Source: Spirochaetia bacterium
GTDB taxonomy: Bacteria; Spirochaetota; Spirochaetia; PWKH01
Assembly: GCA_007116075.1 (NCBI GenBank)
Contig: SKJE01000011.1
Location: forward strand, 1-48,080
DNA: 48,080 bases
Direction: 5' to 3'
Shown here one piece after another: positions 3,134 through 20,249 of the stretch. Each line of letters begins with the position of its first letter. Position 1 is the first letter of the stretch. The translations under genes were made by a program, and so were the position numbers. Below the pieces are notes generated by a model that saw only the letters and a program-made list of their open reading frames with translations, was not told the DNA's origin and searched no databases.

Positions 3134-3139
3134 GGGAGG

Positions 3140-3523
3140 CTATCTCCGCGCAACCGCCTCTATCTCAACCATCACTCCCAGCGGTAGTGCCGCCACTTGG
3201 ACGCACGCCCTGGCGGGGTAGGGTTCTTCGAAGTATTCTGCATAGATCCCGTTTACGGCGGGGAAGTCCTTCATGTCGGTAATATAGATATTCACCTTTA
3301 CTGCATGCTGCAGTGAAGACCCCGCCGCTTCAAGTACTGCCTTCAGGTTCTTCAGGCACTGCCGGGTCTGCGCCTCTATGGAGTTTCCATCCACAGTCCC
3401 TGTTTCCGGGTTGAGGGGGATCTGGCCGGAGCAGAACACGAGGTCACCGGTGATTACTGCCTGTGAATAGGGCCCGACAGCTGCCGGAGCATTACTGGTT
3501 GATACAATTTCTTTCTTCATCAT
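3140..3523 (-). CDS. ridA: RidA/YjgF/UK114 reactive intermediate deaminase
   Basis: APAAVGPYSQAV, SGQIPL, YPARACVQVAALP, VEIEA motifs. Confidence 0.93.
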   Translation of the reverse strand: MMKKEIVSTSNAPAAVGPYSQAVITGDLVFCSGQIPLNPETGTVDGNSIEAQTRQCLKNLKAVLEAAGSSLQHAVKVNIYITDMKDFPAVNGIYAEYFEEPYPARACVQVAALPLGVMVEIEAVARR

Positions 3524-3619
3524 TATCTCCTTGCGTGTGATTATATCAAAGAAGATGAGGGGAGTATATCAATCAGGGGGCTCTGACCGGTGTTGCTTAG
3601 GGAGTAAGGCGGTGCAGGT

Positions 3620-4624
3620 ATGAAGCGAACGGCAGTGCTCCTATTGTGTCTGGCAGTGTTCGGCTGCAGCCAGTGGTATGGCTCATATGAACAGGAGGGC
3701 ATGAGTATTATCACCTATAATGTACAGGATCTCTTCGATGCCCGGTACGACGGAGGAGAATACCCGGAATATGATCCCCGGGAAGGCCTTTGGGATGCTC
3801 CGGGATACCATCTGCGTCTCTCCCGGCTGCGGGATGTCATTGCCCGTTCAGGGTATCCCGATGTGGTGCTCCTCCAGGAGATTGAGAAACCGGAGATTCT
3901 CGATGACCTGGTCTCGGGTTATCTCTACGGCCGGGGATATCATTACCGGGCGGGAACCAGCACCGGGACATCAGCTATTGAACTGGGGGTCATCACCAGG
4001 TTTCCTATCACCCAAGTGCTTCTCCATGAGGGACAGTTTCTGGACCATGTTTCCCCGAGGCCTACCATGGAAGTTGTCCTCGATACTCCCTGGGGTCACA
4101 TTCATGTATTCAATGCCCACTGGAAGTCCAAGATAGGAGGTGCTGAAGAGACAGAACCTGCCCGACGGGCTTGTGCTGAGGCGCTTGCGAGCAGGATTGC
4201 CGATATCAGGATGGAACATGAGGATGTCTACATCATCGCAGGAGGGGACTTCAATACAACCCCCTTTGAGACTGGCTTATATGACCTGGCGCTGCTTCAA
4301 TGGGATGAGGATGTAAGGGAGGGCAGCCTGTATATCACAGCGGATGGATCCATGGTGGATGCCTCGAAGGGAGTTCTCTATTCTCCCTGGCTTCAGGAGG
4401 GAGGACTGAACCGTCCCGGCACCTATGTCTATCGGGGGGAATGGGAGGCAATTGATCATCTACTGTTCTGCAACAATTTTTTTACCGGGAAATCACCGGA
4501 TTTCCAACAGGCCTTTGTTATTGAAGAGGGGCTGCTGGATGAATGGGGAAGTCCGGCCGGATGGAACCTCAACAGCCGGGAGGGGTACTCGGACCACCTC
4601 CCCCTCGGGGCTGTGGCCCGGTAG
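3620..4624 (+). CDS. Endonuclease/exonuclease/phosphatase-family lipoprotein (extracellular nuclease-like)
   Basis: Lipobox-like AVFGC; TYNV, LQEIE, HWKSK, GDFN, IDH and YSDHLP EEP motifs. Confidence 0.85.
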   Translation: MKRTAVLLLCLAVFGCSQWYGSYEQEGMSIITYNVQDLFDARYDGGEYPEYDPREGLWDAPGYHLRLSRLRDVIARSGYPDVVLLQEIEKPEILDDLVSGYLYGRGYHYRAGTSTGTSAIELGVITRFPITQVLLHEGQFLDHVSPRPTMEVVLDTPWGHIHVFNAHWKSKIGGAEETEPARRACAEALASRIADIRMEHEDVYIIAGGDFNTTPFETGLYDLALLQWDEDVREGSLYITADGSMVDASKGVLYSPWLQEGGLNRPGTYVYRGEWEAIDHLLFCNNFFTGKSPDFQQAFVIEEGLLDEWGSPAGWNLNSREGYSDHLPLGAVAR

Positions 4625-4628
4625 AACC

Positions 4629-5291
4629 TCACTGTATAAGATCTTCCTCAGATATCAAGCTGTTTTCTGCAATATTTATTTCATAGAAAATATGCTCTAG
4701 CTCCAGGGCAATATTCACATTTCTGATGATCACTGGAGGCCGTTCATGGGTACGGGTTATCCTCAGTTCAATGGGAGAAAAATTAAGGATACCCTTAATT
4801 CCGGCTTCCTTCAGCTGGTTGAACACCTCAGTAGATGCCTGCTCATTTACGGCGATGATGGCTACCCGAATATCTTCTTCCTTGATAAATGATTCAAGCT
4901 TCTCCATGGGATAGATCGGTATCGGACACTGGTCGTCATCACAGACTGACGGGTTGATATCGAATCCCGCAGTTAAATGGATGCCGTCCATGGCGAACCC
5001 GCTGTACCGCATGAGGGCACCGCCGATTCTCCCGCATCCTACCACAACTGCCCGCTGGGGTTTATCCTTACCGAGAATTGTGTTGAGCTCTGAAATAAGG
5101 CTGCTGATATTATATCCGCCCCGTTTCTGCCCGGAAATTTTTAGTATCGTGAAATCCTTTCGGACAACTGCCCCTTTCACACCGATAGCGTCCCCAAGGT
5201 TGTTGGCAAAAACCCGTTCTAGTCCCAGAGCCTTCAGTTTATGCAAGATACGGTAGTATTTTGTAAGTCGTAAGATCATTTCTTTATGCAT
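4629..5291 (-). CDS. rex: Redox-sensing transcriptional repressor Rex
   Basis: RLTKYYRIL...VRKDF...GGY winged helix, Rossmann VGCGRIGGAL, GILNFSP. Divergent from an NADH-linked hydrogenase operon. Confidence 0.9.
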   Translation of the reverse strand: MHKEMILRLTKYYRILHKLKALGLERVFANNLGDAIGVKGAVVRKDFTILKISGQKRGGYNISSLISELNTILGKDKPQRAVVVGCGRIGGALMRYSGFAMDGIHLTAGFDINPSVCDDDQCPIPIYPMEKLESFIKEEDIRVAIIAVNEQASTEVFNQLKEAGIKGILNFSPIELRITRTHERPPVIIRNVNIALELEHIFYEINIAENSLISEEDLIQ

Positions 5292-5693
5292 AAAAATACT
5301 TATTCCCCCGTTTATATGATGAATTTCTTTTTAAATCATACAGCAATGCACTAAAAAAATCAATTACCTATTTTAAAATAATTAAATAGATTATTATTGA
5401 AAGGAATATAATCTAATTGACATTCTTGAGTTTTCGCAGACGTTGACAATATGAAGATAATTATTCTATATGATCCAATGAGATATATTAATACTGCCCC
5501 GGAAGAAACGTGTTCTGGGCAATTTTCTTCACAGCAGCTATTATAATCTTAGATCATATCATGTTAAGACCTGCGCCCAAGTTCAAAACTGACCGCTGGT
5601 GTTCCTTGTTATTGGATGTGCATGATACGGTAGTGTTTTTATAATGAATAATTTCATTTCTTTATGCATAAAAGGCAAAAAAATCCCGTTTAT
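5276..5693. repeat. Direct repeat pair: exact 20-mer TCATTTCTTTATGCATAAAA at 5276-5295 and 5654-5673, each followed 11 nt later by CCCGTTTAT (5307-5315, 5685-5693)
   Basis: Read directly from the sequence. Contains the perfect 12-bp palindrome TTTATGCATAAA. The first copy overlaps the rex start codon. Confidence 0.85.
5640..5659. promoter_or_regulatory. Candidate Rex operator overlapping a TATAAT hexamer
   Basis: TAATGAA-TAAT-TTCATTT (5642-5659) keeps the TGAA-N4-TTCA core of the Rex box TTGTGAA-N4-TTCACAA. TATAAT lies at 5640-5645. Confidence 0.5.
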
Positions 5694-7339: not shown

Positions 7340-9126
7340 TGGCGTTAACGAATTATATTCTTGTCTGCGGTGGTACCGGATGCGAGTCCGCCAAGGCTGA
7401 CCAGATTTACAAGAACCTCCTGACTGCCGCCCAGGCTTCGGGAGTAGGTGATACTGTGCAGATCCTGAAGACCGGATGTTTCGGTTTCTGTGAACAGGGA
7501 CCTATTGTCAAGATCCTCCCGGAGGACTCCTTCTATGTCCAGGTGAAGCCCGAGGACGCAGAGGAACTCATCAAGGAGCATATTGTCAAAGGGCGGGAAG
7601 TCAAACGGCTGCTCTACGATAAAAGTGAAAGCAAGAAACATGCGAGGGTAGAGGATATTCAGTTCTACCAGAAGCAGTTCCGGATAGTCCTGCGAAACTG
7701 CGGGTTTATCAACCCGGAAGATATCGACGAATATATCGCCAGGGAAGGATATGTTGCCCTGGAGCGGGTGCTCGGCGATATGAGTCCGGATGACGTTATC
7801 CAGGAGCTGAAGAAGTCCGGTCTCAAGGGGCGGGGCGGAGCAGGATTTCCCACCTGGCTTAAATGGAACTTCACGAAGGATGTGGAAGACGATGAAAAGT
7901 ATATCGTCTGTAATGCTGATGAGGGAGATCCCGGTGCATACATGGACCGGTCAACCCTGGAGGGAGATCCCCACTCAGTTCTTGAGGCGATGACCATTGC
8001 GGGATACACCGTTGGCGCCCAGATGGGTTATATCTACATCCGGGCAGAGTATCCTCTGGCAATCAACCGTCTCAAGGCAGCAATGCAGCAGGCCAGGGAC
8101 TATGGACTGCTGGGAGAGGATATCCTGGGAACTGATTTCAGCTTCGATATAGAGATCAGGCTGGGAGCCGGTGCATTTGTCTGCGGTGAAGAAACCGCCC
8201 TGCTGGCTTCCCTCGAGGGAAACCGGGGTATGCCGAGGCCGAGACCTCCCTTCCCGGCCGTCAAGGGACTCTGGAATAAGCCGACGGTCATCAACAACGT
8301 TGAGACCTGGGCGAATATTCCGGTAATTATCCTCAAGGGCGGCGACTGGTTTGCCCAGATTGGTACAGAGGACTCCAAGGGTACCAAGGTATTTGCTCTG
8401 ACCGGTAAGATCAGGAACTCCGGTCTTGTGGAAGTACCCATGGGAACCACCCTCAGGGAAATTATCTATGATATCGGCGGAGGCATTGCCAATGACAAGG
8501 AATTCAAGGCAGTGCAGACTGGCGGTCCTTCGGGAGGAGTGATTACCAAGGAATACTTGGACACCCCAATTGACTACAAGCATTTGCAGGAACTCGGTTC
8601 CATGATGGGTTCCGGCGGTATGATCGTCATGGATGAGGATGACTGTATTGTGGATGTCACCAAGTTCTACCTCGGGTTCACCGTTGACGAGTCCTGCGGT
8701 AAGTGCTCACCATGCCGGGTCGGAGGAAGAACGCTCTACAATATGCTGGACAAGATTACCAAGGGCGAGGGAGAGATTGAGGACATCGATAAGATGCACC
8801 AGATCGGCAAGGCGATGAAAAAGGCCTCCCTGTGCGGCCTTGGACAGACAGCACCGAACCCGATTCTCTCAACCCTGAGGTACTTTGAGAAGGAATACCT
8901 GGCTCATATCAAGGAGAAGAAGTGTCCTTCGGGTAAATGTAAGGAACTGATTTCCTACTACATCCTTGCAGATAAGTGTATCGGCTGTATGGCATGTGCC
9001 CGGAAGTGTCCTGTCGCGGCTATAACCGGGGAGCGGAGGAAAATCCACCGTATTGACCAGGACATCTGTATCAAGTGCGGTATCTGCTACGAGACATGTA
9101 AGTTTGACGCAATCTACGTCGGATGA
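7339..9126 (+). CDS. hndC: NuoF-like FMN/NAD(H)-binding hydrogenase subunit (HndC/HydB)
   Basis: GRGGAGFPT, NADEGDPG, GAGAFVCGEET, GGPSGG, ESCGKCSPCRVG; N-terminal 2Fe-2S and C-terminal 2x[4Fe-4S] motifs. Confidence 0.93.
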   Translation: MALTNYILVCGGTGCESAKADQIYKNLLTAAQASGVGDTVQILKTGCFGFCEQGPIVKILPEDSFYVQVKPEDAEELIKEHIVKGREVKRLLYDKSESKKHARVEDIQFYQKQFRIVLRNCGFINPEDIDEYIAREGYVALERVLGDMSPDDVIQELKKSGLKGRGGAGFPTWLKWNFTKDVEDDEKYIVCNADEGDPGAYMDRSTLEGDPHSVLEAMTIAGYTVGAQMGYIYIRAEYPLAINRLKAAMQQARDYGLLGEDILGTDFSFDIEIRLGAGAFVCGEETALLASLEGNRGMPRPRPPFPAVKGLWNKPTVINNVETWANIPVIILKGGDWFAQIGTEDSKGTKVFALTGKIRNSGLVEVPMGTTLREIIYDIGGGIANDKEFKAVQTGGPSGGVITKEYLDTPIDYKHLQELGSMMGSGGMIVMDEDDCIVDVTKFYLGFTVDESCGKCSPCRVGGRTLYNMLDKITKGEGEIEDIDKMHQIGKAMKKASLCGLGQTAPNPILSTLRYFEKEYLAHIKEKKCPSGKCKELISYYILADKCIGCMACARKCPVAAITGERRKIHRIDQDICIKCGICYETCKFDAIYVG

Positions 9127-9140
9127 TAAGGAGGAATACT

Positions 9141-10892
9141 TTGAAGACCGTGAAAATGAAAGTAAACGGCAAGTCCATCCAGGTACCCGCTAGTTATTCG
9201 GTCCTGCAGGCTGCCAAGGAAGTAAATATAAACATTCCCACCCTCTGCTACCACCCGGACCTGCCCGCCTGGGCAGCCTGCGGTATCTGTGTAGTTAAGC
9301 TGGAGAATTCACCAAAGATGGTACGTGCCTGTGCTACTCCGGTTGCAGCCGGCATGTCAATCATTACCCATGATGCCGAACTCCACCAGATCCGCAAGAC
9401 AGTCATCGAGCTGATTCTTTCCACACACCCAAGTTCATGCCTCACCTGCGGACGAAACGGATCCTGTGAGCTTCAGAACCTGGCAGCCAACTTCGGTGTC
9501 CGGGAACAGCCCTATGAGATTCGCCTCAGGGATTTTGAGCCCGACACGTCAACTACATCTATCGTGATGAACCGGGAAAAGTGCATCAGCTGCGGGCGCT
9601 GCGCCATGGTCTGCCAGTCCCTCCAGGGAGTTTGGGCCCTGGAATTTGTTGGGCGCGGTGAGCATACTGTCATTGCCCCTGCCGGCGAAGTGCCCCTGAA
9701 CGACAGTCCCTGCATTAAGTGCGGCCAGTGTTCAGCCCATTGTCCAGTCGGTGCCATCTTTGAGAAGGATGAGACCAGAGAGTTTATGGAAGCTACCCGG
9801 GACAAGGACAAGCATGTTGTGGTTCAAATTGCTCCTGCGGTGAGAGTAGCCATCGGTGAAGCCTTCGATATGGAACCCGGGACAATCAGCACCGGACGGA
9901 CCTATGCGGCTCTGCGGGCTCTTGGTGCGGACACAGTCTTTGATACCAATTTCTCAGCTGACCTCACCATTATCGAGGAGGGCAGTGAGCTAGTTCACCG
10001 GATAACCACTGGTAAGGGGGAGCTTCCCCAGATTACCAGCTGCTGTCCTGCCTGGACCGACTACATGGAGAAATACTACCCCGATATGATTCCCAATTTC
10101 TCCACTGCAAAGTCGCCCATGATGATGCAGGGAGCCCTGACCAAGACCTACTATGCACAGAATGTCGGTGTTGATCCCAAGAACATCTATTCAGTAGCGA
10201 TCATGCCCTGTACTGCTAAGAAGTTCGAGAAGGAACGGGACGAGAATATGTACGCTTCGGGATATGCCGATGTTGATCTGGTGCTTACCACCCGGGAGCT
10301 TACCCGGCTTATCAGGTCTGCCGGTATTGACTTTGTCAACCTTGGAGAAGAAGAGGCAGACAGCCCCATCGGAGCATACAGCGGTGCAGGAACCATCTTC
10401 GGAAACACCGGTGGTGTGATGGAGGCGGCTGTACGTACTGCTTATAAGCTGGTCACCGATGAGGAACTTGGAGATGTGAACGTCACCGCTGTCCGCGGTA
10501 TGGACGGTGTCAGGAAGGGGTCAGTAGACTTTAAGGGAACGGAGATCAAGGTTGCCGTCGCCCATGGGATGGCTAATGTGAGTACCCTTCTTGAGGAAAT
10601 CAGGGAAGCCCGGAATAATAAGCAGGAGCCTCCCTATCACTTTATTGAAGTAATGGCGTGCCGGGGCGGATGTATTGCCGGTGGTGGGCAGCCCTATGCG
10701 ACTACCGATGAGGTGAGAAACAAGCGTATTGCCGGTATCTACAAGGATGACGAGCAGAGCGATATCCGTTGTTCCCATCAGAACCCGGATATCCAGAAGC
10801 TCTATGATGATTTCCTGGGTAAACCCCTGGGCAAGAAGTCCCATGATCTGCTTCATACAGGCTATCATGAGAGACCATTGTACAAGAAATAG
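9141..10892 (+). CDS. hndD: [FeFe]-hydrogenase catalytic subunit, group A (HndD/HydA)
   Basis: H-cluster motifs TSCCPAW, MPCTAKKFE, EVMACRGGCIAGGGQP; N-terminal Fe-S domains. TTG start at 9141 after AGGAGG. Confidence 0.95.
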   Translation: MKTVKMKVNGKSIQVPASYSVLQAAKEVNINIPTLCYHPDLPAWAACGICVVKLENSPKMVRACATPVAAGMSIITHDAELHQIRKTVIELILSTHPSSCLTCGRNGSCELQNLAANFGVREQPYEIRLRDFEPDTSTTSIVMNREKCISCGRCAMVCQSLQGVWALEFVGRGEHTVIAPAGEVPLNDSPCIKCGQCSAHCPVGAIFEKDETREFMEATRDKDKHVVVQIAPAVRVAIGEAFDMEPGTISTGRTYAALRALGADTVFDTNFSADLTIIEEGSELVHRITTGKGELPQITSCCPAWTDYMEKYYPDMIPNFSTAKSPMMMQGALTKTYYAQNVGVDPKNIYSVAIMPCTAKKFEKERDENMYASGYADVDLVLTTRELTRLIRSAGIDFVNLGEEEADSPIGAYSGAGTIFGNTGGVMEAAVRTAYKLVTDEELGDVNVTAVRGMDGVRKGSVDFKGTEIKVAVAHGMANVSTLLEEIREARNNKQEPPYHFIEVMACRGGCIAGGGQPYATTDEVRNKRIAGIYKDDEQSDIRCSHQNPDIQKLYDDFLGKPLGKKSHDLLHTGYHERPLYKK

Positions 10893-10999: not shown

Positions 11000-12310
11000 A
11001 TGTCTGATTCATCCAGAAGCAGCAATCCAAGAAAAACCTTTGTTATCGATACCAATGTATTCATCCACCGTCCCGATGCGGTGCTCTCCTTCAAGGAATC
11101 CGATGTGGTCATACCACTCTGGGTGCTGGAAGAGCTGGACAAGCTCAAGACTTATTCGGATGAACGGGGCCGCAATGCCCGCCATGCAATCCGGTTTATC
11201 GAGCAGCGGGCACAGGGGGGCAACCTGTCGGCGGGAGTGAAGATAGAGAACAGTTCAATATTACGGGTAGCCCTGGACTATGATCAGAACGCTGCCGAGG
11301 AACTTGATATCTCAAGGATCGACAACCGTATAATCCTAACTGCCCAGAAACTTGACCGGTCAGAAAAGACTGAGGTGTTCTTTGTCTCCAAGGATATCAA
11401 TGCCCGGGTGAAGGCCCGGGCATTGGGAATCAAGGCGGTGGACTACGAGAAGCAGAAAACAAGCTTTACCCGGCTCTACCGCGGATTTCTCGAAGGAGCA
11501 GTCTCCCGGGATGATGCCAGGCTGCTGGAAGAGCAGCAGCGTATACCCTGGTCTGGAAACCTGCTGGACAACCAGTTCCTCACCTCTGCCGAACACGAAA
11601 CCATAGGACGCTACCGGAGTGCAGATAGCTCCCTTAGCTGGGTTGACCGGTATGAACACGGGGTTTTTGGTATAGTTCCCCTGAATGTCCAGCAGCGTAT
11701 AGCCCTGGACCTGCTTCTCGATGATGAGATTTCCCTGGTCAGTCTTATCGGGAAAGCGGGTACCGGTAAGACGCTCCTTGCTCTGGTGGCAGGCCTGAAG
11801 AAGGTGTTTGAAAGCAAGGTGTATACCCGGGTGCTTGCCAGCAGGCCGATTATGCCCTTGGGTAAGGATATCGGGTATCTTCCCGGGGACAAGGAGGCGA
11901 AACTGAGTCATTGGATGAAGCCCCTCTATGACAACCTGGAGTTGATTATTTCCCAGCACCACCATGGAGAACTCAAGAATGTTGAGACGCTTCTTAAGAG
12001 CAGCAAGGTCGAGCTTGAGGCAATCACCTATATCCGGGGTAGGAGCCTTCCCAGGCAGTTTATTATCATCGATGAGGCGCAGAATCTCTCCCCCCATGAA
12101 ATCAAGACCATCGTCAGCAGGGCGGGAAAGGATTCAAAGATTGTGCTCACCGGGGATCCCTATCAAATAGATACTCCCTATCTGGATAGTGACTCAAACG
12201 GGTTGACCTTTCTGGTAGAGGCCTTCAAAGGACAGTCCCTCTACGGGCATGTGACCCTGGAGAAGACTGAACGGAGTCCCTTGGCCGAACTGGCGGCGGA
12301 GCTGTTATGA
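11000..12310 (+). CDS. PIN-PhoH (PhoH2-type) ATPase/ribonuclease
   Basis: VIDTNV and SKDINAR (PIN); GKAGTGKT, IGYLPG, YIRGRS, DEAQN, GDPYQID (PhoH). Confidence 0.92.
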   Translation: MSDSSRSSNPRKTFVIDTNVFIHRPDAVLSFKESDVVIPLWVLEELDKLKTYSDERGRNARHAIRFIEQRAQGGNLSAGVKIENSSILRVALDYDQNAAEELDISRIDNRIILTAQKLDRSEKTEVFFVSKDINARVKARALGIKAVDYEKQKTSFTRLYRGFLEGAVSRDDARLLEEQQRIPWSGNLLDNQFLTSAEHETIGRYRSADSSLSWVDRYEHGVFGIVPLNVQQRIALDLLLDDEISLVSLIGKAGTGKTLLALVAGLKKVFESKVYTRVLASRPIMPLGKDIGYLPGDKEAKLSHWMKPLYDNLELIISQHHHGELKNVETLLKSSKVELEAITYIRGRSLPRQFIIIDEAQNLSPHEIKTIVSRAGKDSKIVLTGDPYQIDTPYLDSDSNGLTFLVEAFKGQSLYGHVTLEKTERSPLAELAAELL

Positions 12311-12993
12311 TATCCCGGGAAGATATCCTGCAATTGACCAAAGCCCGGATCTTTGCAGGGGGATCTACGGAACGAGTATCCCGGTGGCTCGGTGCGCTTC
12401 CGGGGTACAGCGAGCAGTTCCAGAGCGGACAGGTGATCCATTTTCAGGGAGACCGGTATGACCGGCTGATACTGCTTATAGAGGGAAAGGCCGATGCCCG
12501 CTTTCAGGACCCCTCCGGAAAGGTCATGCAGATTGAGACCCTAACCGGTCCTGAGGCTGTGGCTCCTGCTGTGCTGTTCTCCTCAGAGCAGCAGCTGCCG
12601 GTGACCCTCTATGCTGAGACCAAGGTCCGCCTCTTTCGGGTGAATCGTTCAGATCTTCTGGCCTTACTTCATAAGGAGCCCCAGATGCTGGAAAACACCC
12701 TCCTCGATATGGGAGACCGGCTGGTCTTTCTCGCAGAGAAGGTGCGGTTTATCCGGTTTGCCAACCTGCGACAGAAGATCTGTTCCTACCTGCTGCAGCT
12801 GCGCAGCCGCAGCGTAACGCCGAAGGTGAATTTCACCTATACCAGGGAGAAGCTTGCAGAGATGTTTGGGGTGGAGCGTCCCTCCCTGTCCAGGGAGCTC
12901 TCCCGCATGGTGAATGAAGGAATTATAACCATCGAGGGCAGGCAGGTTACCATATGCGATGAAGAATTTTTACGAGATTGTCTCGAACAGTAA
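12307..12993 (+). CDS. Crp/Fnr-family transcriptional regulator (HcpR-like)
   Basis: cNMP-like N-terminal domain and C-terminal HTH TREKLAEMFGVERPSLSREL. ATGA overlap with phoH. Confidence 0.88.
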   Translation: MISREDILQLTKARIFAGGSTERVSRWLGALPGYSEQFQSGQVIHFQGDRYDRLILLIEGKADARFQDPSGKVMQIETLTGPEAVAPAVLFSSEQQLPVTLYAETKVRLFRVNRSDLLALLHKEPQMLENTLLDMGDRLVFLAEKVRFIRFANLRQKICSYLLQLRSRSVTPKVNFTYTREKLAEMFGVERPSLSRELSRMVNEGIITIEGRQVTICDEEFLRDCLEQ

Positions 12994-13063: not shown

Positions 13064-13918
13064 ATGAAACGAGATATTATCACTATAGATGAGCAGCTCT
13101 GTGACGGATGCGGAAACTGTATACCAGGATGCCCCGAGGGGGCCCTCCAGCTTATAGACGGCAAGGCGCGGCTGGTGAGCGACCTGTTCTGTGACGGACT
13201 GGGGGCGTGCATCGGTTCCTGTCCCCAGGGGGCGATTGTTATTGAGTCCCGGGAGGCCGAGCCCTATGATGAGCACCGCGTCATGACCGAGCGCATCATC
13301 CCCCAGGGGGAAGCAACTATTATCGCCCATCTCAAGCACCTGCTTGACCACGGTGCCGATACCTACTACCAGCAGGCGGTTTCCTCCCTGCGGGAATCCT
13401 ATCCCGGGGCAGGGAAGCTCATTGAAGCGGTTGAGGCTCCGCAGAAGCAGGAAGAGTCCGGATGTGCCGGCGGCTGCCCCGGATCCCTCTCAAAGATCTT
13501 TGGTGAAAAACCGGTCCTGGCGACACAGCAGTCCTCAGCCCTGACCCACTGGCCAATCCAGATGCATCTGCTCAACCCTGCTTCTCCCCAGTTTCGGGGA
13601 AAGGATTTCCTGTTCGCTGCGGACTGCACCGCCTTCAGCCTTGGAGCGTTTCACAGCACCCTTCTGGCGGGCAAGGCATTGGGGATTGGCTGTCCCAAAC
13701 TTGATGCCGGTACCGATATCTATCGGGATAAACTAATTAAGCTCATCGATCACAGCGGCATCCACACCTTGACTGTAGCAATCATGGAGGTTCCATGCTG
13801 CGGATCCCTGCTCAAGATAGCCCTGGATGCTGTTTCCAGAGCGCAGCGGCGGGTCCCGGTGAAACTGATCCAGATCAGCGTTGAGGGAGATATTTTGAAG
13901 GAGGAATGGGTAGCCTAA
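13064..13918 (+). CDS. 4Fe-4S dicluster protein with conserved Cys-rich C-terminal domain (family commonly found with hcp/HcpR)
   Basis: CDGCGNCIPGCP, CDGLGACIGSCP, GCPGS, WPIQ, AADC, GCPKLD, MEVPCC. Confidence 0.85.
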   Translation: MKRDIITIDEQLCDGCGNCIPGCPEGALQLIDGKARLVSDLFCDGLGACIGSCPQGAIVIESREAEPYDEHRVMTERIIPQGEATIIAHLKHLLDHGADTYYQQAVSSLRESYPGAGKLIEAVEAPQKQEESGCAGGCPGSLSKIFGEKPVLATQQSSALTHWPIQMHLLNPASPQFRGKDFLFAADCTAFSLGAFHSTLLAGKALGIGCPKLDAGTDIYRDKLIKLIDHSGIHTLTVAIMEVPCCGSLLKIALDAVSRAQRRVPVKLIQISVEGDILKEEWVA

Positions 13919-13931
13919 ACATATTACCCGG

Positions 13932-13940
13932 TGTTATACT
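13932..13940 (+). promoter_or_regulatory. Extended -10 promoter driving the riboswitch-like leader
   Basis: TG-T-TATACT ending about 14 nt before the first stem of the RNA motif. Confidence 0.6.
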
Positions 13941-13952
13941 GTTTGCACAACA

Positions 13953-14048
13953 AACTTCCGAGTCCCTGACCGCTTCGGCTTCTGTCATGCGGGGGGACCG
14001 ATGGGCTGTACTGGAAACGGTGCAGCCTCCCGTGTTTGGAAAGGAAGG
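13953..14048 (+). ncRNA. Moco (molybdenum/tungsten cofactor) riboswitch-like RNA motif
   Basis: P1 CTTCC (13955-59)/GGAAG (14043-47) sequesters the RBS. CCGAG junction. P2 GTCCCT/GGGGAC; P3 CCGC/GCGG; P4 GGCTGTACTG-GAAA-CGGTGCAGCC; P5 TCC...GGA, ending CTCCCG...GGAAAGGA. This is the Moco motif layout. ATG at 14055. Confidence 0.85.
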
Positions 14049-14054
14049 CAACCT

Positions 14055-15464
14055 ATGCGTATCATTATTTCTGTGCTGCTCCTGGCGGTACTGCTCCCTG
14101 CGGGGGCATTGGATCTGACCTTCAACGGATCACCGGTGGAGGCAACCTTGCAGAAGGCCGCAGAGCTGGGGTACCTGGACAGGGGTGTTCCGACGGTGTC
14201 CCTGGGTGATCTGCTGCCCCTCACCTATGGTACCAGCTCTGTCCATGTCATTGACGGCCGGGAACAGTCCCGACGGTTTACCACAGAGAACCTGTTTCAG
14301 GTAGAGCTCAGGTTTCCAGATACCGGGGTGATATTAGTCGCTCCCGATGGGGAGTTCCTTGAAACCAGGGAGGTTATGGTCACCTCCAATGAGCTTGACC
14401 TGCGGCCCATTGAGGTGTGGGTAAGCTGGGAGTCAACTGACCTGCTCAAGGCAGAGGCTGAACGGTTTTCCCGGCGCTACCACATGCCGGTTACCATACG
14501 GGATGTTCCGGGTATCAGTCGGAGGATAACTGCATACGAGCGGTCGGGACAGCAGATGCCCGATGTGGTAATGGTCCAGGCAGACTATATCCCTGAACTG
14601 CTGGCCCACCGGATCCTGCAGCCCGTCAGACGGGATGGATCCGATGCTTTTACACTGGAAGGAGATCAGTGGGCTGTTCCCTTTTCTCTCGATACCCATA
14701 TTGCTGTATACAATCCGGATCAGTTGAACCTGCCCGACAGGGACTATACCCTGGAGGAACTGTTCCGGGGTATTACCGATACCGGAATTCCTGCATCATG
14801 GAATGTATACTCTTTCTACTGGCTGCTTCCGATGCTTTATCATGCTGCAGATGCTCCTTTCCCAGATCCCCATACTGTACAGATTGACTCCCCTGAAGCA
14901 GCAGCAGCAATCTGTCAGCTTCTGACGTGGATGTCTGAAGGAGTGCTTCTACCGCGGGAGCGTGACGGCATGATAGACGGGTTTCTCCGGGGGGAGGTCT
15001 CCTACATGCTTACTGGATCATATATGCTCGGACTGCTGGATAAACTCGGTATAGCCTATGAGGCAGCTGTATATCCAATTGATATGACGCCGCTGCTTGA
15101 CTGGAAGGGATTCTCCGTCACCAGGCGGTCACTGAATCCAGCAGGGGCCAGAGCCTTTATTGACTACTTCACCTCCCCGGCGGTTCAGCGGAACCTCCCG
15201 GCAGCCATGGGTAAACTTCCGGCAGATTCCCGGGCACTGAGCTTTGCTGCTGAAAACATACAGCATGGGCAGGTACTGCTCGACAGCAGGCTTCGGGGAG
15301 TACCGGTTCCTGCCGGCAGTTCCTATGCTGTCACGAAGGACGTTATGTGGGGCATGCTGCGGCTTATGCTCCACCGTTCAGTATCTCCTTCGGACGGACT
15401 TGTCCGCGCCCAGGGGATGATCGAACGGAGATTATCCGATGCAGCTCTCAGGGAGGGTCTATGA
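14055..15464 (+). CDS. ABC transporter solute-binding protein, MalE/CUT1-like, with an extra ~115-aa N-terminal domain
   Basis: Signal peptide MRIIISVLLLAVLLPAGA; PDVVMV, WAVPFSLDTHIAVYNPD, FLRGEVSYMLTG, ARAFIDYFTS. Start placed after the AGGAAGG RBS. Confidence 0.8.
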   Translation: MRIIISVLLLAVLLPAGALDLTFNGSPVEATLQKAAELGYLDRGVPTVSLGDLLPLTYGTSSVHVIDGREQSRRFTTENLFQVELRFPDTGVILVAPDGEFLETREVMVTSNELDLRPIEVWVSWESTDLLKAEAERFSRRYHMPVTIRDVPGISRRITAYERSGQQMPDVVMVQADYIPELLAHRILQPVRRDGSDAFTLEGDQWAVPFSLDTHIAVYNPDQLNLPDRDYTLEELFRGITDTGIPASWNVYSFYWLLPMLYHAADAPFPDPHTVQIDSPEAAAAICQLLTWMSEGVLLPRERDGMIDGFLRGEVSYMLTGSYMLGLLDKLGIAYEAAVYPIDMTPLLDWKGFSVTRRSLNPAGARAFIDYFTSPAVQRNLPAAMGKLPADSRALSFAAENIQHGQVLLDSRLRGVPVPAGSSYAVTKDVMWGMLRLMLHRSVSPSDGLVRAQGMIERRLSDAALREGL

Positions 15465-16213
15465 AACTGATCCTCCTGTGTATTCTGATGCTTGTTCCCA
15501 CACATGGTCAGGGGACCAGCTGGCTGGTAGTGGATATCTGCGGAAGCAGATACGCAGGTGTCCCCCTCTCCTCCTATGTCCGTGATATTGATCCTCCCTT
15601 TGAGATTTCCCTGGAAAATCACCAGGGTGCATGGGTAACCCTCTCCTCGGATGCTCGGCTGGATCACGTCATCATTGCCGAGTATAAGGATGGGACTGCA
15701 CTGGAACCGACCCTTGTGGGCTCCGATGTACCCCCTGATCTCCACCTTGAGGGTATCCGCACAGTCGAGGTGCGGCGGCTTGAGCCGGCACAAATAGAAC
15801 CGCCGGTGCTGGAAGTGCTCTCAGGCGGGGATCTCATCCAGGTGGAACTCTCGCACCTGGAGCCATTTATCCTGGAAGGAGACGGGGAGATCCGCTCCTC
15901 TACCGGGAGGGTCACCCAAGGCAGGTATGCCGGGATACCCCTCCTGGACCTTGCCCGGATGTTTCACGGATCATCACATCCGGGGACGATTACAGCAGAG
16001 GCGGCAGACGGATACCGGGTTTCCTATGAAGTGTCCTGGCTGGAGGATCATGAGGGTACATGGATTCTGGCTTGGAGGGATGAAAAGGGGATGATGGATC
16101 AATCCTACGGTCCCTTCCGTACGATAAGCGTCGGAGATCCCCCGCCCCGGACAGAGGGGCGGAGAAGTGCCAGGCAGGTTGTTCGGATCATCTTTGAGGG
16201 AACCCGGAAATGA
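15461..16213 (+). CDS. Secreted molybdopterin-binding (Oxidored_molyb / sulfite-oxidase-fold)-like protein with apparent internal duplication
   Basis: Signal peptide; YAGVPLSSY and YAGIPLLDL; AEAADGY, ILAW, GPFR, RSARQVVRI match the family pattern GVxLxxLL..AxDGY..LA..GPxR..VxxI. ATGA-coupled at both ends. Confidence 0.7.
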   Translation: MKLILLCILMLVPTHGQGTSWLVVDICGSRYAGVPLSSYVRDIDPPFEISLENHQGAWVTLSSDARLDHVIIAEYKDGTALEPTLVGSDVPPDLHLEGIRTVEVRRLEPAQIEPPVLEVLSGGDLIQVELSHLEPFILEGDGEIRSSTGRVTQGRYAGIPLLDLARMFHGSSHPGTITAEAADGYRVSYEVSWLEDHEGTWILAWRDEKGMMDQSYGPFRTISVGDPPPRTEGRRSARQVVRIIFEGTRK

Positions 16214-18123
16214 AGCGCGTGCACCTGGTACTTGGACTGCCGGCATTACTGCTGTGCGGTCTGCTGCTGGTTTTTCCTGCACTTCATGCACTGGGATATT
16301 CCCTTCACGGCTGGAATCTTGACGGATACCGATTTGCCCTTCAGGACAGGGGATTCTCCTTCAGTCTGGTGATTACCCTGCTCTGGACCGGGGCCAATAC
16401 GCTGTCAGTACTTTGGCTCGGGCTTCATGGGGCCGTGTTTGCCCTTGAACACCCTAGATGGAGCCGACCGCTGTTTTTCCTGCTGTTTCTTCCCTGGGTG
16501 ATTCCAGTATATATTGCTGCACCCCTCGCACGGGGCGTATTATACGGAGGGGGAGGGACTTCGCTGGCTGCATGGCTGACGGGTTTTGACATACCCTTCA
16601 CCACTAATGCCTCAGCGGGTTTTACTGCCGCCCTGGTAGTGAGTCTCTGGCTGCGTCTTCCCGCTGTTCTCTTTATCATATACGGAAGCCTGAAGAAGAT
16701 TTCAAGGGATCTGGTAGAGGCGTCCCATGTTGACGGATGCACCCGGTATCATCGAATCCGGGAAATCTATCTGCCGGGAACAGCTTCTGCACTCCGCGCA
16801 GGAGGGTTTCTTACTGCACTTTCAGGGTTCACTGAATTTAGTCTGCTGTTTCTCCTCACCGGTGGAGGTCCCCCGATGGTTTCCGGAATTACTGACCGGT
16901 ATATTATCGGGGCAACAACTACGGTGGGAGTATTCCTCTACCGGGTGTTCCAGGGGATCTATGACTACCGGGTGACAGCATCGGTGGGGACCCTGACCGT
17001 CTTCGGAGTTGTGGTACTGCTGATGTTATGGAATGCTTCAAGCCGGGAGGGGGAACAGCGCAGGCGAATGCTATTGATGATTACTGCAGTGGTACACATG
17101 GTCTCCTTTGGTTCCTGGGTCCAGATTTTTGCAGTCGGCTTCCTGGTGAGCCTGAGATTCCCGAAACTTTTTTTACCCCTGGTGGTCCTGGAAACTGCAG
17201 TATTGGGGTATGTGGTTTATCTGTCGGGTGTCCTTGCAGGTCTAGCCCCGGCAGCCCTCATATCCTTGGCTGCCGGCATACTGCTATCTGACCATCCGCC
17301 CCTACTTGCACGGTGGCATCACGCTGCGGTGGGTTTGATGGCAGTGGTGCTTGCCAGTCTGTCTGCTCTGCTGATGCTGATGCTGCTCCGACTGACCATA
17401 TCCGGAGCAGGTATCATTTCAGTGCAGACACTGCTCCCTGCGTATCCGTCACTAGAGGCCTACCGGCGGGTGCTCACAGACATACAGGTATGGCGGAGTA
17501 TCGGGAATTCCCTCACCATAGCCCTGGGCAGTTCCCTCCTGCTGCTTATGGTGCTGCTTCCGGCGTATACCCTGGCGGCCCTGGTCTCCAGGAAGTCACG
17601 CCAGCGGGCCGTTGCCATTGCCCATACGGTCCAGTCCTCGGGAGGAATTCATACCCTCATTCCGCTGTTTTTCCTGTTCACACCCCTCGCTCTTATTGAT
17701 ACCAGGATGTCTGTCATGCTTGTCTGCGCTGCCGGAGCCGTAGCCCCGGCACTTATGATCAGCAGTTCATATCTGGAGGGTCATCCCGATTCACTTCGGG
17801 AAGCGGCGGAACTCGAGGGGGCCGGACTCATCCAGTGGGCCAGATGGATACTCCTGCCGCTCTCAATACCAGTACTTGCAGTATCGGCGGTGCTCGCTTT
17901 CCTGAGGGGGTACAATACCTTCCTCGTACCGCTGCTGATGCTTCAGCGGGAGGAACTCTATCCGGTAAGCTTGAGAATATACCAGTTTGCAGGTGACCCA
18001 TCAGGTGCCCAGGCTGACTGGTCCGGTTTCGGGGTGCTCGCACTGGTGCATCTTGTGACAGCCTCTGCTGTGATGTGGAAGGTGTCCAGGTATTTCGGGC
18101 ATACTGCCCTGGGTGACCACTAA
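16210..18123 (+). CDS. Fused double ABC permease (MalF-MalG-like, CUT1)
   Basis: Highly hydrophobic; two EAA loops (LVEASHVDGC, LREAAELEGA), LPWVIP, LLTGGGP. Confidence 0.85.
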   Translation: MKRVHLVLGLPALLLCGLLLVFPALHALGYSLHGWNLDGYRFALQDRGFSFSLVITLLWTGANTLSVLWLGLHGAVFALEHPRWSRPLFFLLFLPWVIPVYIAAPLARGVLYGGGGTSLAAWLTGFDIPFTTNASAGFTAALVVSLWLRLPAVLFIIYGSLKKISRDLVEASHVDGCTRYHRIREIYLPGTASALRAGGFLTALSGFTEFSLLFLLTGGGPPMVSGITDRYIIGATTTVGVFLYRVFQGIYDYRVTASVGTLTVFGVVVLLMLWNASSREGEQRRRMLLMITAVVHMVSFGSWVQIFAVGFLVSLRFPKLFLPLVVLETAVLGYVVYLSGVLAGLAPAALISLAAGILLSDHPPLLARWHHAAVGLMAVVLASLSALLMLMLLRLTISGAGIISVQTLLPAYPSLEAYRRVLTDIQVWRSIGNSLTIALGSSLLLLMVLLPAYTLAALVSRKSRQRAVAIAHTVQSSGGIHTLIPLFFLFTPLALIDTRMSVMLVCAAGAVAPALMISSSYLEGHPDSLREAAELEGAGLIQWARWILLPLSIPVLAVSAVLAFLRGYNTFLVPLLMLQREELYPVSLRIYQFAGDPSGAQADWSGFGVLALVHLVTASAVMWKVSRYFGHTALGDH

Positions 18124-20165
18124 CGGATATCGAAGACGAACAGGGCGTGCTGGGAAGCAGATATTGCGTACAGGTAATTCCCGGCAGGATCGATATGAAG
18201 CTGGTGGATCGGTGCACAGGGGGTGAAAGAGAGAAACTCCACACTGCCGTCGGGATTGATGTCGAATGCGGTAATACCCCGGGATGTGACGCTGCCGACA
18301 TAGAGCTTTTCCCTCCATGGATCCGTCACGACGCTCCGGAGTCCGGCCATGCGGCAGGAGTCGAAATCATCCTGTTTTATCCGGTAGCCATAATGGAATT
18401 CCTGTTGATCATAACTGAAACGGCAGAGGAAGTTATTGGATGTAGTGAAAAGGGTGCCGTCGTGGTAGAAATGGGCATTATTTACTTGGCTGATACCCAT
18501 AGTCCCGTCTGTGGAGTAGCTGAAGGACTGGATGGGATCAAGAGCCCCTGCTCTATCGATTGAGAAGAGCTGCAGCGAGCTGTTGTTCCTATTAGTTGAT
18601 GCAAGGTGGGTTCCCGCAGGATTGATTGCCATTTTTCTCGGAGAGGAGAGGCCGGGGCTCAATGCTGATGCTTGGACACCCCCCAGATTGAGCCGGATCC
18701 CGTCCCATATAAGATGGTAGATCACATCATTACCCTGATCACTTACATAGATATGTGAGCTCTTCGGGGATATGACCACATCCGATAGCAGGTCAAAGGG
18801 TTCCATGCCGGCGCCGGGGCTGCCGGAGCGTACGGCACTGTGGAGGTATGTCCCGCTGTCATAGCAGTAGCTGAATATATTGACTGACCGGTCGTACTCT
18901 GAGAGGGTGCAGATAAAGGATCCGTCGGGGGCTGCATCAACGGCCTTTACACCGTGCAATGGAGCCCCCGACGAACCCTCAATGGTATAGAGCAGTTCCA
19001 GCAGGCCGTCATGACGGGGGACAAAGACCTGCAGCAGGTCTCCGGACTTTGATGCAGTAATCACTTCTCCCCGGGATGTCACCGTGAAGTCTGAGACATT
19101 TCGCAGGATAGCCTGATCATGCCCATCCTCAATGACCTGGATCAGCATAAGGTCTTCTGTAAGTTCGTAGTCCAGTGCCTCAAAGGAGAGCGATGCGGAA
19201 GCGATGCTGCCCTGCTGCGGGGTATATGCAATCACGTCCATCCGGTGAATTCCTGCATCCGGGGAGATAATCTCCCTGGCATCCCCGGTAGTCTTCCGGA
19301 TGATCTGCCCGTTGAGGTACCATTCAAGGGTGAGGGATGCAATATCGGTACCGTCGGGATCGTCGAGCAGGTAGGTGAATTCAATAGGGATGTGTTCATA
19401 GATAATATAGGGGTCACCGGCTATAGAGCCGGTAACCCGCTGAGTGGTGTCGATGAACAGCAGATCTGGATTCACTTCTGTCAAGTGGGTGGTGATATCG
19501 GGAATATTGAGATTGAGGGTGGTCCCTGGATAGACAGTTGCCTCAAATACTGCTGTACCGCATGAATCATAGTTTTCATCGAACAGTTCGACCTGGAATA
19601 CATAGTCTCCTGCAGCGATAGTGTCTGTATAGATCCCTCCGGCTGTCCCGATAGTAAGGTTTTTCACATCGGGCTGATCATTACTTCCCGCTTCCCGGAG
19701 GGTAACTTCTCCCTGCATGATCTTGATATCCTGGTCATTCCAGGATACCGATAACTGCAGGGTACCGTCACCCTCGGCCGGTTCAAGCTCAAGCGCAATA
19801 GAATCGGTATGCTTGTCTATGTGGACAGTACGCTCTCCGGAGATCAGAACAGTTCCTGCACTATTGAGTCCCTCGGCGCTGAATGTCCACTCCCCTGCAT
19901 AGATCTCCTTGAGTTCGGTGGAACTCGATGAGCTGGTCAGCGTAAAGGAGCTGCTGCGGGGGCCTGAGCAAGTGAGACTGTATTCCGTAATCTCAGGTTC
20001 CGGTTCGTAGGTGCTCATAACGGATGATGTCCGTGGAGCACCAAGGGGAGACGTAAAATTGAGCACCAGGTGAACCGTGTCGGGCAGTTGGTCCCGGCAG
20101 CCGAAGCTGACTAGCAGAAGTGCCAGCAAGAAAACCGGGAGACTAAGCATCTGGTATTTCTTCAT
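18120..20165 (-). CDS. Lipoprotein with Ig-like N-terminal region and C-terminal lactonase-like beta-propeller
   Basis: MKKYQ start after GGAGG, lipobox-like VSFGC; propeller-type repeats (AAPDGSFI, ISPKSSHIYV, INPAGTHL, IDPAGNYLY). Confidence 0.7.
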   Translation of the reverse strand: MKKYQMLSLPVFLLALLLVSFGCRDQLPDTVHLVLNFTSPLGAPRTSSVMSTYEPEPEITEYSLTCSGPRSSSFTLTSSSSSTELKEIYAGEWTFSAEGLNSAGTVLISGERTVHIDKHTDSIALELEPAEGDGTLQLSVSWNDQDIKIMQGEVTLREAGSNDQPDVKNLTIGTAGGIYTDTIAAGDYVFQVELFDENYDSCGTAVFEATVYPGTTLNLNIPDITTHLTEVNPDLLFIDTTQRVTGSIAGDPYIIYEHIPIEFTYLLDDPDGTDIASLTLEWYLNGQIIRKTTGDAREIISPDAGIHRMDVIAYTPQQGSIASASLSFEALDYELTEDLMLIQVIEDGHDQAILRNVSDFTVTSRGEVITASKSGDLLQVFVPRHDGLLELLYTIEGSSGAPLHGVKAVDAAPDGSFICTLSEYDRSVNIFSYCYDSGTYLHSAVRSGSPGAGMEPFDLLSDVVISPKSSHIYVSDQGNDVIYHLIWDGIRLNLGGVQASALSPGLSSPRKMAINPAGTHLASTNRNNSSLQLFSIDRAGALDPIQSFSYSTDGTMGISQVNNAHFYHDGTLFTTSNNFLCRFSYDQQEFHYGYRIKQDDFDSCRMAGLRSVVTDPWREKLYVGSVTSRGITAFDINPDGSVEFLSFTPCAPIHQLHIDPAGNYLYAISASQHALFVFDIR

Positions 20166-20249
20166 ATATTTCCTCCTTTTGCACAACAAGGAGGTGATCA
20201 GTCTATCAGTTGATTCAATTGTTCAGGATTATATGGCATACTCCTACAT

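Follow-up and report, generated by a model that had tools for sequence, protein, structure and literature searches.

The window analyzed here is a stretch of 48,080 nucleotides of Spirochaetia bacterium DNA (GenBank assembly GCA_007116075.1, contig SKJE01000011.1, positions 1 to 48,080, forward strand), and our subject within it is a three-gene transport operon that stands behind a riboswitch of the molybdenum cofactor (Moco) class (Table 1). The gene upstream of the aptamer stops at 13918, and the intergenic space is almost wholly aptamer. The operon encodes a secreted binding protein (gene 1), a secreted protein with the fold of sulfite oxidase (SUOX) and of the pterin-binding protein PruR (gene 2), and a fused permease of the ATP-binding cassette (ABC) type (gene 3). 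Both junctions are ATGA overlaps (15461-15464 for genes 1 and 2, 16210-16213 for genes 2 and 3), the coupling that the initial annotation of this DNA had read from the letters. On the 3' side of the permease the next gene runs toward it (18120-20189, minus strand), which closes the operon at three genes.

Table 1. Features of the riboswitch-controlled operon; positions are those of the window.
Feature	Position	Strand	Label or source
Possible extended -10 promoter element (TGTTATACT)	13932-13940	+	read from sequence
Moco/tungsten-cofactor riboswitch aptamer, P3-lacking type	13944-14063	+	RF01055, cmscan
Secreted substrate-binding protein with MalE-like core, 469 aa	14055-15464	+	gene 1
Secreted two-domain SUOX/PruR-fold protein, 250 aa	15461-16213	+	gene 2
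Fused two-module ABC permease, MalF-like and MalG-like halves, 637 aa	16210-18123	+	gene 3

The leader carries the clearest signal at the locus. Cmscan matches it to the Moco RNA motif (RF01055) with 65.3 bits, where the gathering score is 36 (E 1.4e-13), in an alignment that spans the complete model (positions 1-135 of 135), which bears out the initial proposal of such a motif before the operon. It is the sole Rfam family in the 48-kb window, and it occurs once in the window's genome (hereafter G000; 2.2 Mb in 200 contigs, 93.9% complete). The inner 5' strand of stem P1, CUUCC (13955-13959), pairs with GGAAG inside GGAAGG (14043-14048), which is the ribosome-binding site (RBS) of the binding-protein gene; the 3' strand of P1 had been recognized as the RBS from the start. 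In the structure line of cmscan the outer P1 pairs extend to the AUG at 14055-14057, and a scan of the leader found no terminator-like site. The leader anatomy is that of a translational off-switch, and the overlap of P1 with RBS and AUG suggests that the cofactor represses the operon. The extended -10 element described upstream can be read from the letters (TGTTATACT) but was not called in a sigma-70 promoter scan, because no -35 fits.

One detail of the initial annotation has to be reversed. It had counted a P3 stem as present and tentatively preferred molybdenum over tungsten on that ground, but the window aptamer has no P3: the 15 P3 positions of the model are aligned to gaps by cmscan, and the spacing between P2 and P4 is merely 3-4 nt in 60 of 60 related leaders, which are therefore P3-less as well. 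The window aptamer belongs to the P3-lacking subclass of RF01055. According to Regulski et al. (2008; PMC2408646; this and the other papers are cited for the portions available to us), 58 of 176 Moco RNAs are without P3, and P3-less Moco RNAs correlate almost perfectly with tungsten-cofactor genes. On this basis the absence of P3 indicates a tungsten cofactor, in agreement with aldehyde:ferredoxin oxidoreductase (AOR) genes, described below, as the main client enzymes.

The open reading frame (ORF) listed for gene 1 starts at 14001, within the aptamer; we place the start at AUG 14055 because it fits both the RBS and a signal peptide, and the resulting 469-residue translation has a signal-peptide-like N-terminus. 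Its Pfam matches are PF13416 (44.3 bits, residues 169-391), PF01547 and PF13343 only, and a family profile built from 13 orthologues matches T. maritima MalE1/MalE2 in the PDB with E 4.6e-41, as expected for the MalE-like binding protein initially described. The NCBIfam MalE equivalog is matched at 16.6 bits against a cut-off of 291, and the product is not of the PF13531/PF12849 class to which ModA, WtpA and TupA belong. Outside the MalE-like core lies an extra N-terminal domain of about 100 residues (approximately residues 20-120). Compared with the SUOX-like domain of gene 2, this domain gives an hhalign probability of merely 52%, and its structural neighbors in the ESM Atlas (TM-score 0.61-0.66) all lie under the scoring bar. 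One of these neighbor clusters, from Chloroflexota and likewise under the bar, joins PF09819 (ABC_cobalt, a membrane component of the energy-coupling factor (ECF) type) to PF00174, a combination that may represent another transporter type using a SUOX-like domain.

The gene 2 product itself has no Pfam or NCBIfam match, and a word-index search returned no match beyond itself; five of seven orthologues from related genomes pass the cut-off of PF00174 (Oxidored_molyb), and HMMER found 52 relatives at E ≤0.001 among 1.84 billion representatives. An AlphaFold2 (AF2) model made from the single sequence was unusable (mean predicted local distance difference test, pLDDT, 38.7), while a model made from an alignment of 35 sequences reached pLDDT 90.1. 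PruR crystal structures occupy Foldseek ranks 1-6 for this model, followed by SUOX-family enzymes. A structure search independent of Foldseek, made with residues 111-250, gave the same picture: Z 16.0 for V. cholerae PruR (7kp2; rmsd 2.6 Å over 131 aligned residues), 13.8 for K. pneumoniae PruR with neopterin, 13.4 for the sulfite dehydrogenase SorA (2blf), 12.0 for chicken sulfite oxidase (2a99) and 10.2 for YedY (1xdq), with the next unrelated chain at 5.6. By structure comparison, residues ∼110-250 have the fold of the SUOX Moco-binding domain, the three SUOX-family enzymes being matched over residues 110-248, and residues 20-110 are a shortened duplicate of this C-domain (hhalign 98%, E 2e-13); most relatives have three domains where the window protein has two. 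The N-terminus is signal-peptide-like, and those of the family, judged by eye, look like Sec or lipoprotein signals rather than twin-arginine signals. The secreted SUOX-fold-like protein of the initial annotation is thus recovered in the model.

The C-domain (111-250) is without cysteine, as is the domain in 33 of the 35 aligned relatives, and none of the alignment columns is a conserved cysteine; because the Mo-ligand cysteine is missing, we do not class the product as a SUOX-family enzyme. With PruR it shares the SUOX-like fold, the signal-peptide-like N-terminus and the absent Mo-ligand cysteine, but not the truncated hairpin with its PW motif nor a dcpA-type partner gene, its neighbors being ABC parts. 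In the AF2 model the hairpin is long (strands 138-145 and 151-160), and in the family its tip reads S-S-T-G or T-T-S-A-G (conserved T-T-S-A-G). PruR of A. tumefaciens has a hydrogen-bonding asparagine, N102, and a pterin-stacking tyrosine, Y104 (PMC11194511). Opposite the N-D-Y of 7kom the family has D-G-Y, with D183 invariant and Y185 at least 90% conserved, in an alignment that is HMM-based and not structure-based. Judged on the model, the gene 2 product resembles PruR and Moco domains in fold and is a member of neither family; it is a candidate pterin-binding partner of the binding protein.

Complex prediction with the products of genes 1 and 2 gave an ipSAE of 0.75, compared with 0.00 for the best of three controls; the runs share at least 88% of their contacts, and partner pLDDT is at least 85. 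Among 80 solved complexes, 58 attain this value, as do 2 of 110 mismatched pairs; these reference counts are only rough here because our complex used custom alignments. The fold model thus speaks for an association of the two gene products. To our knowledge, no MalE-like binding protein has been solved in complex with a SUOX-fold protein.

Gene 3 fits the remaining part of such a transporter. PF00528 (BPD_transp_1) matches with 60.2 bits in two stretches within the one 637-residue protein, and the best NCBIfam matches are MalF over residues 90-270 (53.4 bits against an equivalog cut-off of 392) and MalG over residues 425-622 (54.9 bits against 261), both far under their cut-offs. A MalE-like binding protein and two MalF/MalG-type membrane modules, the makings of a CUT1/MalEFGK system, are therefore present, and the fused MalF-MalG-like permease was correctly read. 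The genes 3' of the operon vary between loci, and none encodes an ATPase.

The arrangement is not peculiar to this window. A six-frame search found a gene 2 homologue in 9 of 40 relatives; RF01055 lies upstream of the operon in seven of these nine loci when widened, and in the other two the contig ends before the leader. A pattern scan over one genome per GTDB species found the operon in 74 species genomes, of which 71 carry spirochaete names, two belong to Thermotogota and one is an 'uncultured bacterium'; since the patterns were derived from spirochaete sequences, the operon may occur in further phyla. A covariance model built from 19 leader sequences detected the riboswitch at 60 of these loci, always on the strand of the operon. 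In all 14 others the contig is cut off no more than 1,778 nt upstream of the match, and in the two with the longest upstream sequence (L102 and L135) the binding-protein ORF starts at most 62 nt from the contig end. In 58 of the 60 loci the binding-protein ORF (475-707 residues) begins in the last ∼15 nt of the riboswitch match, which is the register of the window. The feature is real and tightly conserved, and homologous operons keep their riboswitch, one of the tests that the initial annotation had proposed. The source record of one homologue calls it a 'sugar ABC transporter substrate-binding protein', the kind of label that automated annotation had been predicted to give.

Several loci depart from the common layout or appeared to do so. 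Apparent fusions of gene 2 with the permease in L094 and L140 (ORFs of 1,017 and 1,041 residues) were dismissed as open alternative frames in GC-rich DNA. L132 (G012:C221) has a riboswitch at 1-55, a 220-residue ORF at 91-753, a SUOX-like gene of 267 residues at 681-1484 and a permease-sized ORF of 546 residues at 1610-3250; no 500-residue binding protein is present on this short contig, which suggests a variant architecture. In L020 (G003:C4) a second riboswitch (3050-3214, 41.2 bits) precedes a solitary two-domain SUOX-like gene of 359 residues (3337-4416), with no binding-protein gene before it and 121 nt of contig after it.

G000 has two full-length AOR genes (647 and 662 residues) and one DMSO-reductase-family gene, and the importer genes are its sole genes under a Moco-class RNA. 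In this 93.9%-complete genome MoaC, the C-terminal domain of MoaA, MoaE, MoeA_N and MobA were all not found; the sole MoCF_biosynth match is CinA, so that no MogA/MoaB was found either. The same holds for oxyanion-binding proteins: its two SBP_bac_11 matches are a thiamine and a ferric-iron binding protein, with no ModA or WtpA found, and its sole PBP_like_2 match is PstS, with no TupA found. The absences repeat in all four other genomes of its family (completeness 85, 81, 89 and 55%) and recur in G019 (96%) and G022 (94%), while G017 (92%) retains just fragments of moeA and a moaE frame that is interrupted by two stops. Single absences are weak, and the argument rests on their repetition across families.

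Wider counts agree. Among the AOR-positive members of a sample of 41 genomes of the class, MoaC is found in 2 of 9 with the operon compared with 10 of 15 without it. We then took the first 50 of the 74 species genomes as further carriers, at least two of which (G017 and G019) are also in the sample of 41. AOR is present in 49 of these 50 carriers, with 1-11 matches each; MoaC is found in 15 and MoeA_N over its cut-off in 16, either of the two in 17 and neither in 33, and 32 of these 33 have AOR. Two of these carriers, G067 and G068, which have megabase-scale contigs, also show no MoaA over cut-off and no MoCF_biosynth domain. Carriers thus mostly have pterin-dependent enzymes and no MoaA, MoaC or MoeA, the pattern for which the initial annotation had proposed a test.

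Three observations in these genomes touch on the same genes. At G000:C55:3336-5384 (L066) lies a DMSO-reductase-family protein of 682 residues (dmsA_ynfE, 334 bits) that starts at profile position 45 and, from its sequence, probably is without a Tat leader. The G017 pieces, in a relative that bears the operon, are a moaE frame with internal TAG and TAA at G017:C1:11521-11823 (minus strand) and, at G017:C50:1204-1570 (minus strand; L058), a 39-position MoeA_N scrap adjoining a MoCF_biosynth piece with a TGA; by their sequence they look like a decayed cofactor pathway. Second P3-less riboswitches stand directly before AOR genes in G019 (C111:4295-4417, plus strand; AOR at 4475-5041) and in G017 (C77:5870-5986, minus strand; AOR at 4852-5451). 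Since no intact biosynthesis genes were found in these two genomes, enzymes that use the cofactor would there also be gated by an imported ligand.

These results lead us to a reading of the operon that we consider reasonably probable: it is a riboswitch-repressed ABC importer that salvages either the pterin cofactor of tungsten or molybdenum enzymes or a precursor pterin. A cell with as many as 11 intact AOR genes and a cofactor-sensing RNA but no molybdopterin route must obtain the cofactor or a late precursor from outside, and the combination of a binding protein of the large-ligand MalE-like class with a partner of pterin-binding fold favors salvage. The cofactor would then be taken from the environment by anaerobic spirochaetes that have lost its biosynthesis. 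As cargo, W- or Mo-molybdopterin is the most likely and a metal-free pterin precursor less likely: MoeA and MogA/MoaB were also not found, so that we infer a metal-loaded form rather than cyclic pyranopterin monophosphate or metal-free molybdopterin. The scavenging importer proposed initially therefore passes the genomic tests; its preference for molybdenum does not stand, and 17 of 50 carriers do have biosynthesis genes.

On this reading the system could work as follows. When the cofactor is short, the P3-less aptamer would be empty, RBS and AUG would be free and the binding protein would be translated, with the SUOX/PruR-fold protein and the fused permease translated next through the ATGA overlaps. 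The cysteine-less SUOX-like protein, exported as an apo-protein, would capture the pterin cofactor outside the cytoplasmic membrane while sitting on the binding protein, and the pair would pass the cargo to the permease, with import powered by an ATPase encoded elsewhere. The imported cofactor would load AOR-type enzymes, and surplus cofactor would bind the aptamer, close P1 and stop translation. The roles given here to the two periplasmic proteins, like the direction of regulation, are proposed ones. For the more specific claim, that the operon serves solely to take up the mature pterin cofactor of tungsten or molybdenum, with a MalE-like protein and a cysteine-less SUOX-fold catcher as its receptor and with auxotrophic carriers, we put the chances at about even.

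A number of points weigh against salvage and have to be set beside the evidence for it. The identity of the cargo is deduced from the context of the operon, and the core of gene 1 is closest to maltose-binding proteins in profile comparison with the PDB. An ATPase gene is absent from the operon and the adjoining genes in all 74 loci, and neither an OB_MalK nor a TOBE_2 domain (MalK-type C-terminal domains) was found in the 93.9%-complete genome. That genome has 59 ABC_tran matches; the four ATPase candidates of 348-420 residues that we considered are ProV-like (two), OppD-like and ECF-type and belong to other systems, and the gene may be unlinked or on unassembled sequence. The DMSO-reductase-family gene of G000 is present though no match to MobA, which serves the dinucleotide cofactor, was found. 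MoaC and/or MoeA_N in 17 of the 50 carriers, and in G005 and G012 too, mean that the importer is not confined to auxotrophs; it could carry something useful to auxotrophs and producers alike. Conversely, G001, G010, G011, G015 and G016 are AOR-positive and MoaC-negative yet have no operon or riboswitch. Most of the genomes are incomplete metagenome bins, and because moa genes are clustered, the loss of a single contig can conceal the pathway in any one of them. The co-occurrence counts overstate the evidence, since related genomes are not independent, and MoaE serves poorly as a marker in this class, with 5 of 41 genomes positive against 13 of 41 for MoaC. Finally, free Moco is very labile (PMC7849362).

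How do other explanations fare with the same data? The operon could be a new tungstate or molybdate importer whose SUOX-like protein binds the oxyanion in the site that once lay beside the metal. The riboswitch would then repress metal uptake when the cofactor is plentiful, as for ModABC, TupABC and WtpABC, and Moco RNAs commonly precede oxyanion transporters (PMC2408646); the permease weakly matches the Mo_ABC_porter and ModB models, the 17 carriers with biosynthesis genes can make the pterin, and G000, with no ModA, WtpA or TupA found, would need a metal route if it made the pterin as well. However, tungstate would be unusable in the 33 carriers with neither MoaC nor MoeA, and these two are found in none of the four family relatives nor in G000; the binding protein is of the MalE-like class rather than PF13531 or PF12849, and its partner has a pterin-binding fold. 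We regard this explanation as unlikely. A second alternative is import of a different kind of solute, perhaps a sugar or an organic compound of sulfur or nitrogen, with the middle gene encoding an exported SUOX-type enzyme that acts on it. The riboswitch would then be explained by the cofactor need of the enzyme, and Moco RNAs are known before genes of cofactor-using enzymes too, among them putative sulfite oxidases of S. wolfei (PMC2408646); the MalE-like core and the passing of PF00174 by five of seven homologues would fit. Against this stand the SUOX-like domain itself, without cysteine in 33 of 35 members and with none conserved, and N-termini that look Sec- or lipoprotein-like rather than twin-arginine. 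Furthermore, it would be odd for an off-switch to turn an enzyme down just when its cofactor is plentiful, and the absence of biosynthesis in carriers would be left unexplained, so that an exported enzyme seems to us quite improbable.

The structural matches by themselves would suggest yet another possibility: like PruR, the system might sense or take up simple pterins of the neopterin, monapterin or biopterin kind and have nothing to do with tungsten or molybdenum cofactors. The best matches are PruR proteins, one of which was solved with neopterin (PMC11194511). The PruR hallmarks of a truncated PW hairpin and a DcpA-type partner gene are not present, however; all 60 of 60 leaders are aptamers of the Moco class, and the operon tracks AOR genes. 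We give simple pterins very little credence. None of these three explanations accounts for everything: each leaves aside the loss of biosynthesis, the absence of the cysteine or the presence of an aptamer of the Moco class.

In its logic, salvage of the cofactor would resemble known systems. Riboswitch-controlled cofactor importers include the cobalamin riboswitch with BtuFCD and the thiamine pyrophosphate riboswitch with thiamine ABC or ECF systems. As in the window, an aptamer for the finished cofactor occupies the leader of an importer that depends on a binding protein, where it masks the RBS, and many carriers have lost the biosynthetic pathway; the window operon differs in being MalEFG-type with an extra SUOX-fold periplasmic subunit. 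Compared with MalEFGK2 (CUT1), the binding-protein core and both permease halves are homologous, but the window permease is fused, its binding protein has an extra N-domain, no MalK was found in the genome, and the operon is without sugar-catabolism genes. ModABC, TupABC and WtpABC have the same RNA family before an ABC importer, with the P3-less type linked to tungsten use (PMC2408646), whereas the window operon has a binding protein outside PF13531/PF12849, a partner of pterin-binding fold, and carriers that mostly are without molybdopterin synthesis. PruR (7kou, 7kos, 7kom, 7kp2 and 7rkb; PMC11194511), a periplasmic pterin-binding protein of Proteobacteria, likewise has a secreted SUOX fold with no Mo-ligand cysteine and no catalytic partner domain; it is a single domain with a shortened PW hairpin that binds small pterins and signals to DcpA, whereas the window protein has two domains and a long hairpin and is encoded in an ABC operon behind a Moco riboswitch. 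The uptake of dietary Moco by C. elegans offers a parallel in that ready-made cofactor passes between organisms and is used; there, however, the recipient is an animal, the transporter is not named in the available text, and protein-bound Moco is the bioavailable form (PMC7849362).

In the available text of a 2013 survey of riboswitch regulons (PMC3766115), the coenzymes with riboswitch-regulated uptake are B12, thiamin, riboflavin, queuosine and folate; no Moco transporter is listed, and for molybdenum and tungsten there are metal transporters only. In the available parts of PMC7849362 (2021), C. elegans is the only organism so far described to gain Moco by uptake besides synthesis, and those of a 2026 review (PMC13259868) treat the passage of pterins across bacterial membranes as unknown. 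From metagenomes it has also been proposed that anammox bacteria receive molybdopterin from other bacteria (PMC9909701, in a one-sentence citation). In the literature searched, which lay mostly outside subscription journals and supplements, we found no bacterial importer or salvage system for Moco or its tungsten counterpart and, for any organism, no dedicated uptake system for the mature pterin cofactor of either metal; Table S and Fig. S4 of Regulski 2008, outside that scope, could list such operons. The accessory SUOX-fold subunit and the predicted cargo would be unprecedented, while the logic of a riboswitch-gated ABC importer for a cofactor is known.

If salvage is the right reading, many free-living anaerobic spirochaetes and a few Thermotogota would be cofactor auxotrophs that run up to 11 AOR paralogues on the cofactor of their neighbors, and in anoxic sediments the molybdenum/tungsten cofactor would count as a public good that is traded. 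The class of P3-less 'tungsten' riboswitches would gain a clean physiological context, a systematic 'sugar transporter' annotation would be corrected, and annotators could use the operon as a marker of auxotrophy for this cofactor. A conserved gene set marked by a riboswitch would make bacterial cofactor uptake testable at the bench, and its proteins could possibly provide a scaffold for stabilizing and moving a cofactor whose instability limits the therapy of human Moco deficiency (PMC7849362).

Environmental data were available as Logan contigs, in which uncovered parts are uninformative. A near-identical stretch is present in metagenomes from soda lakes, salt lakes and sediment. The RNA library X8 holds two near-identical contigs of ∼170 nt (15409-15578 and 16976-17146), at most a weak hint at transcription of the operon, as well as a 54-nt stretch that matches the core of the aptamer but differs in its flanks and probably comes from another organism. 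A contig of run X2 that joins 13879 to 13998 has just 24 letters on one side and was set aside as another organism or a repeat.

The genes around the operon complete the picture of the locus. Upstream lie a group A6 NADH-dependent [FeFe] hydrogenase (9123-10892, 799.9 bits), PhoH2 (11000-12310), a Crp/Fnr-type regulator (12307-12993) and a 4Fe-4S protein of 284 residues (13064-13918), and the organism is evidently a strict anaerobe; the regulator and the 4Fe-4S protein are syntenic in G003 (L013). The convergent gene downstream encodes a 689-residue protein with a lactonase-type seven-bladed beta-propeller (PF10282, 53 bits), and its end overlaps the permease stop by 4 nt.

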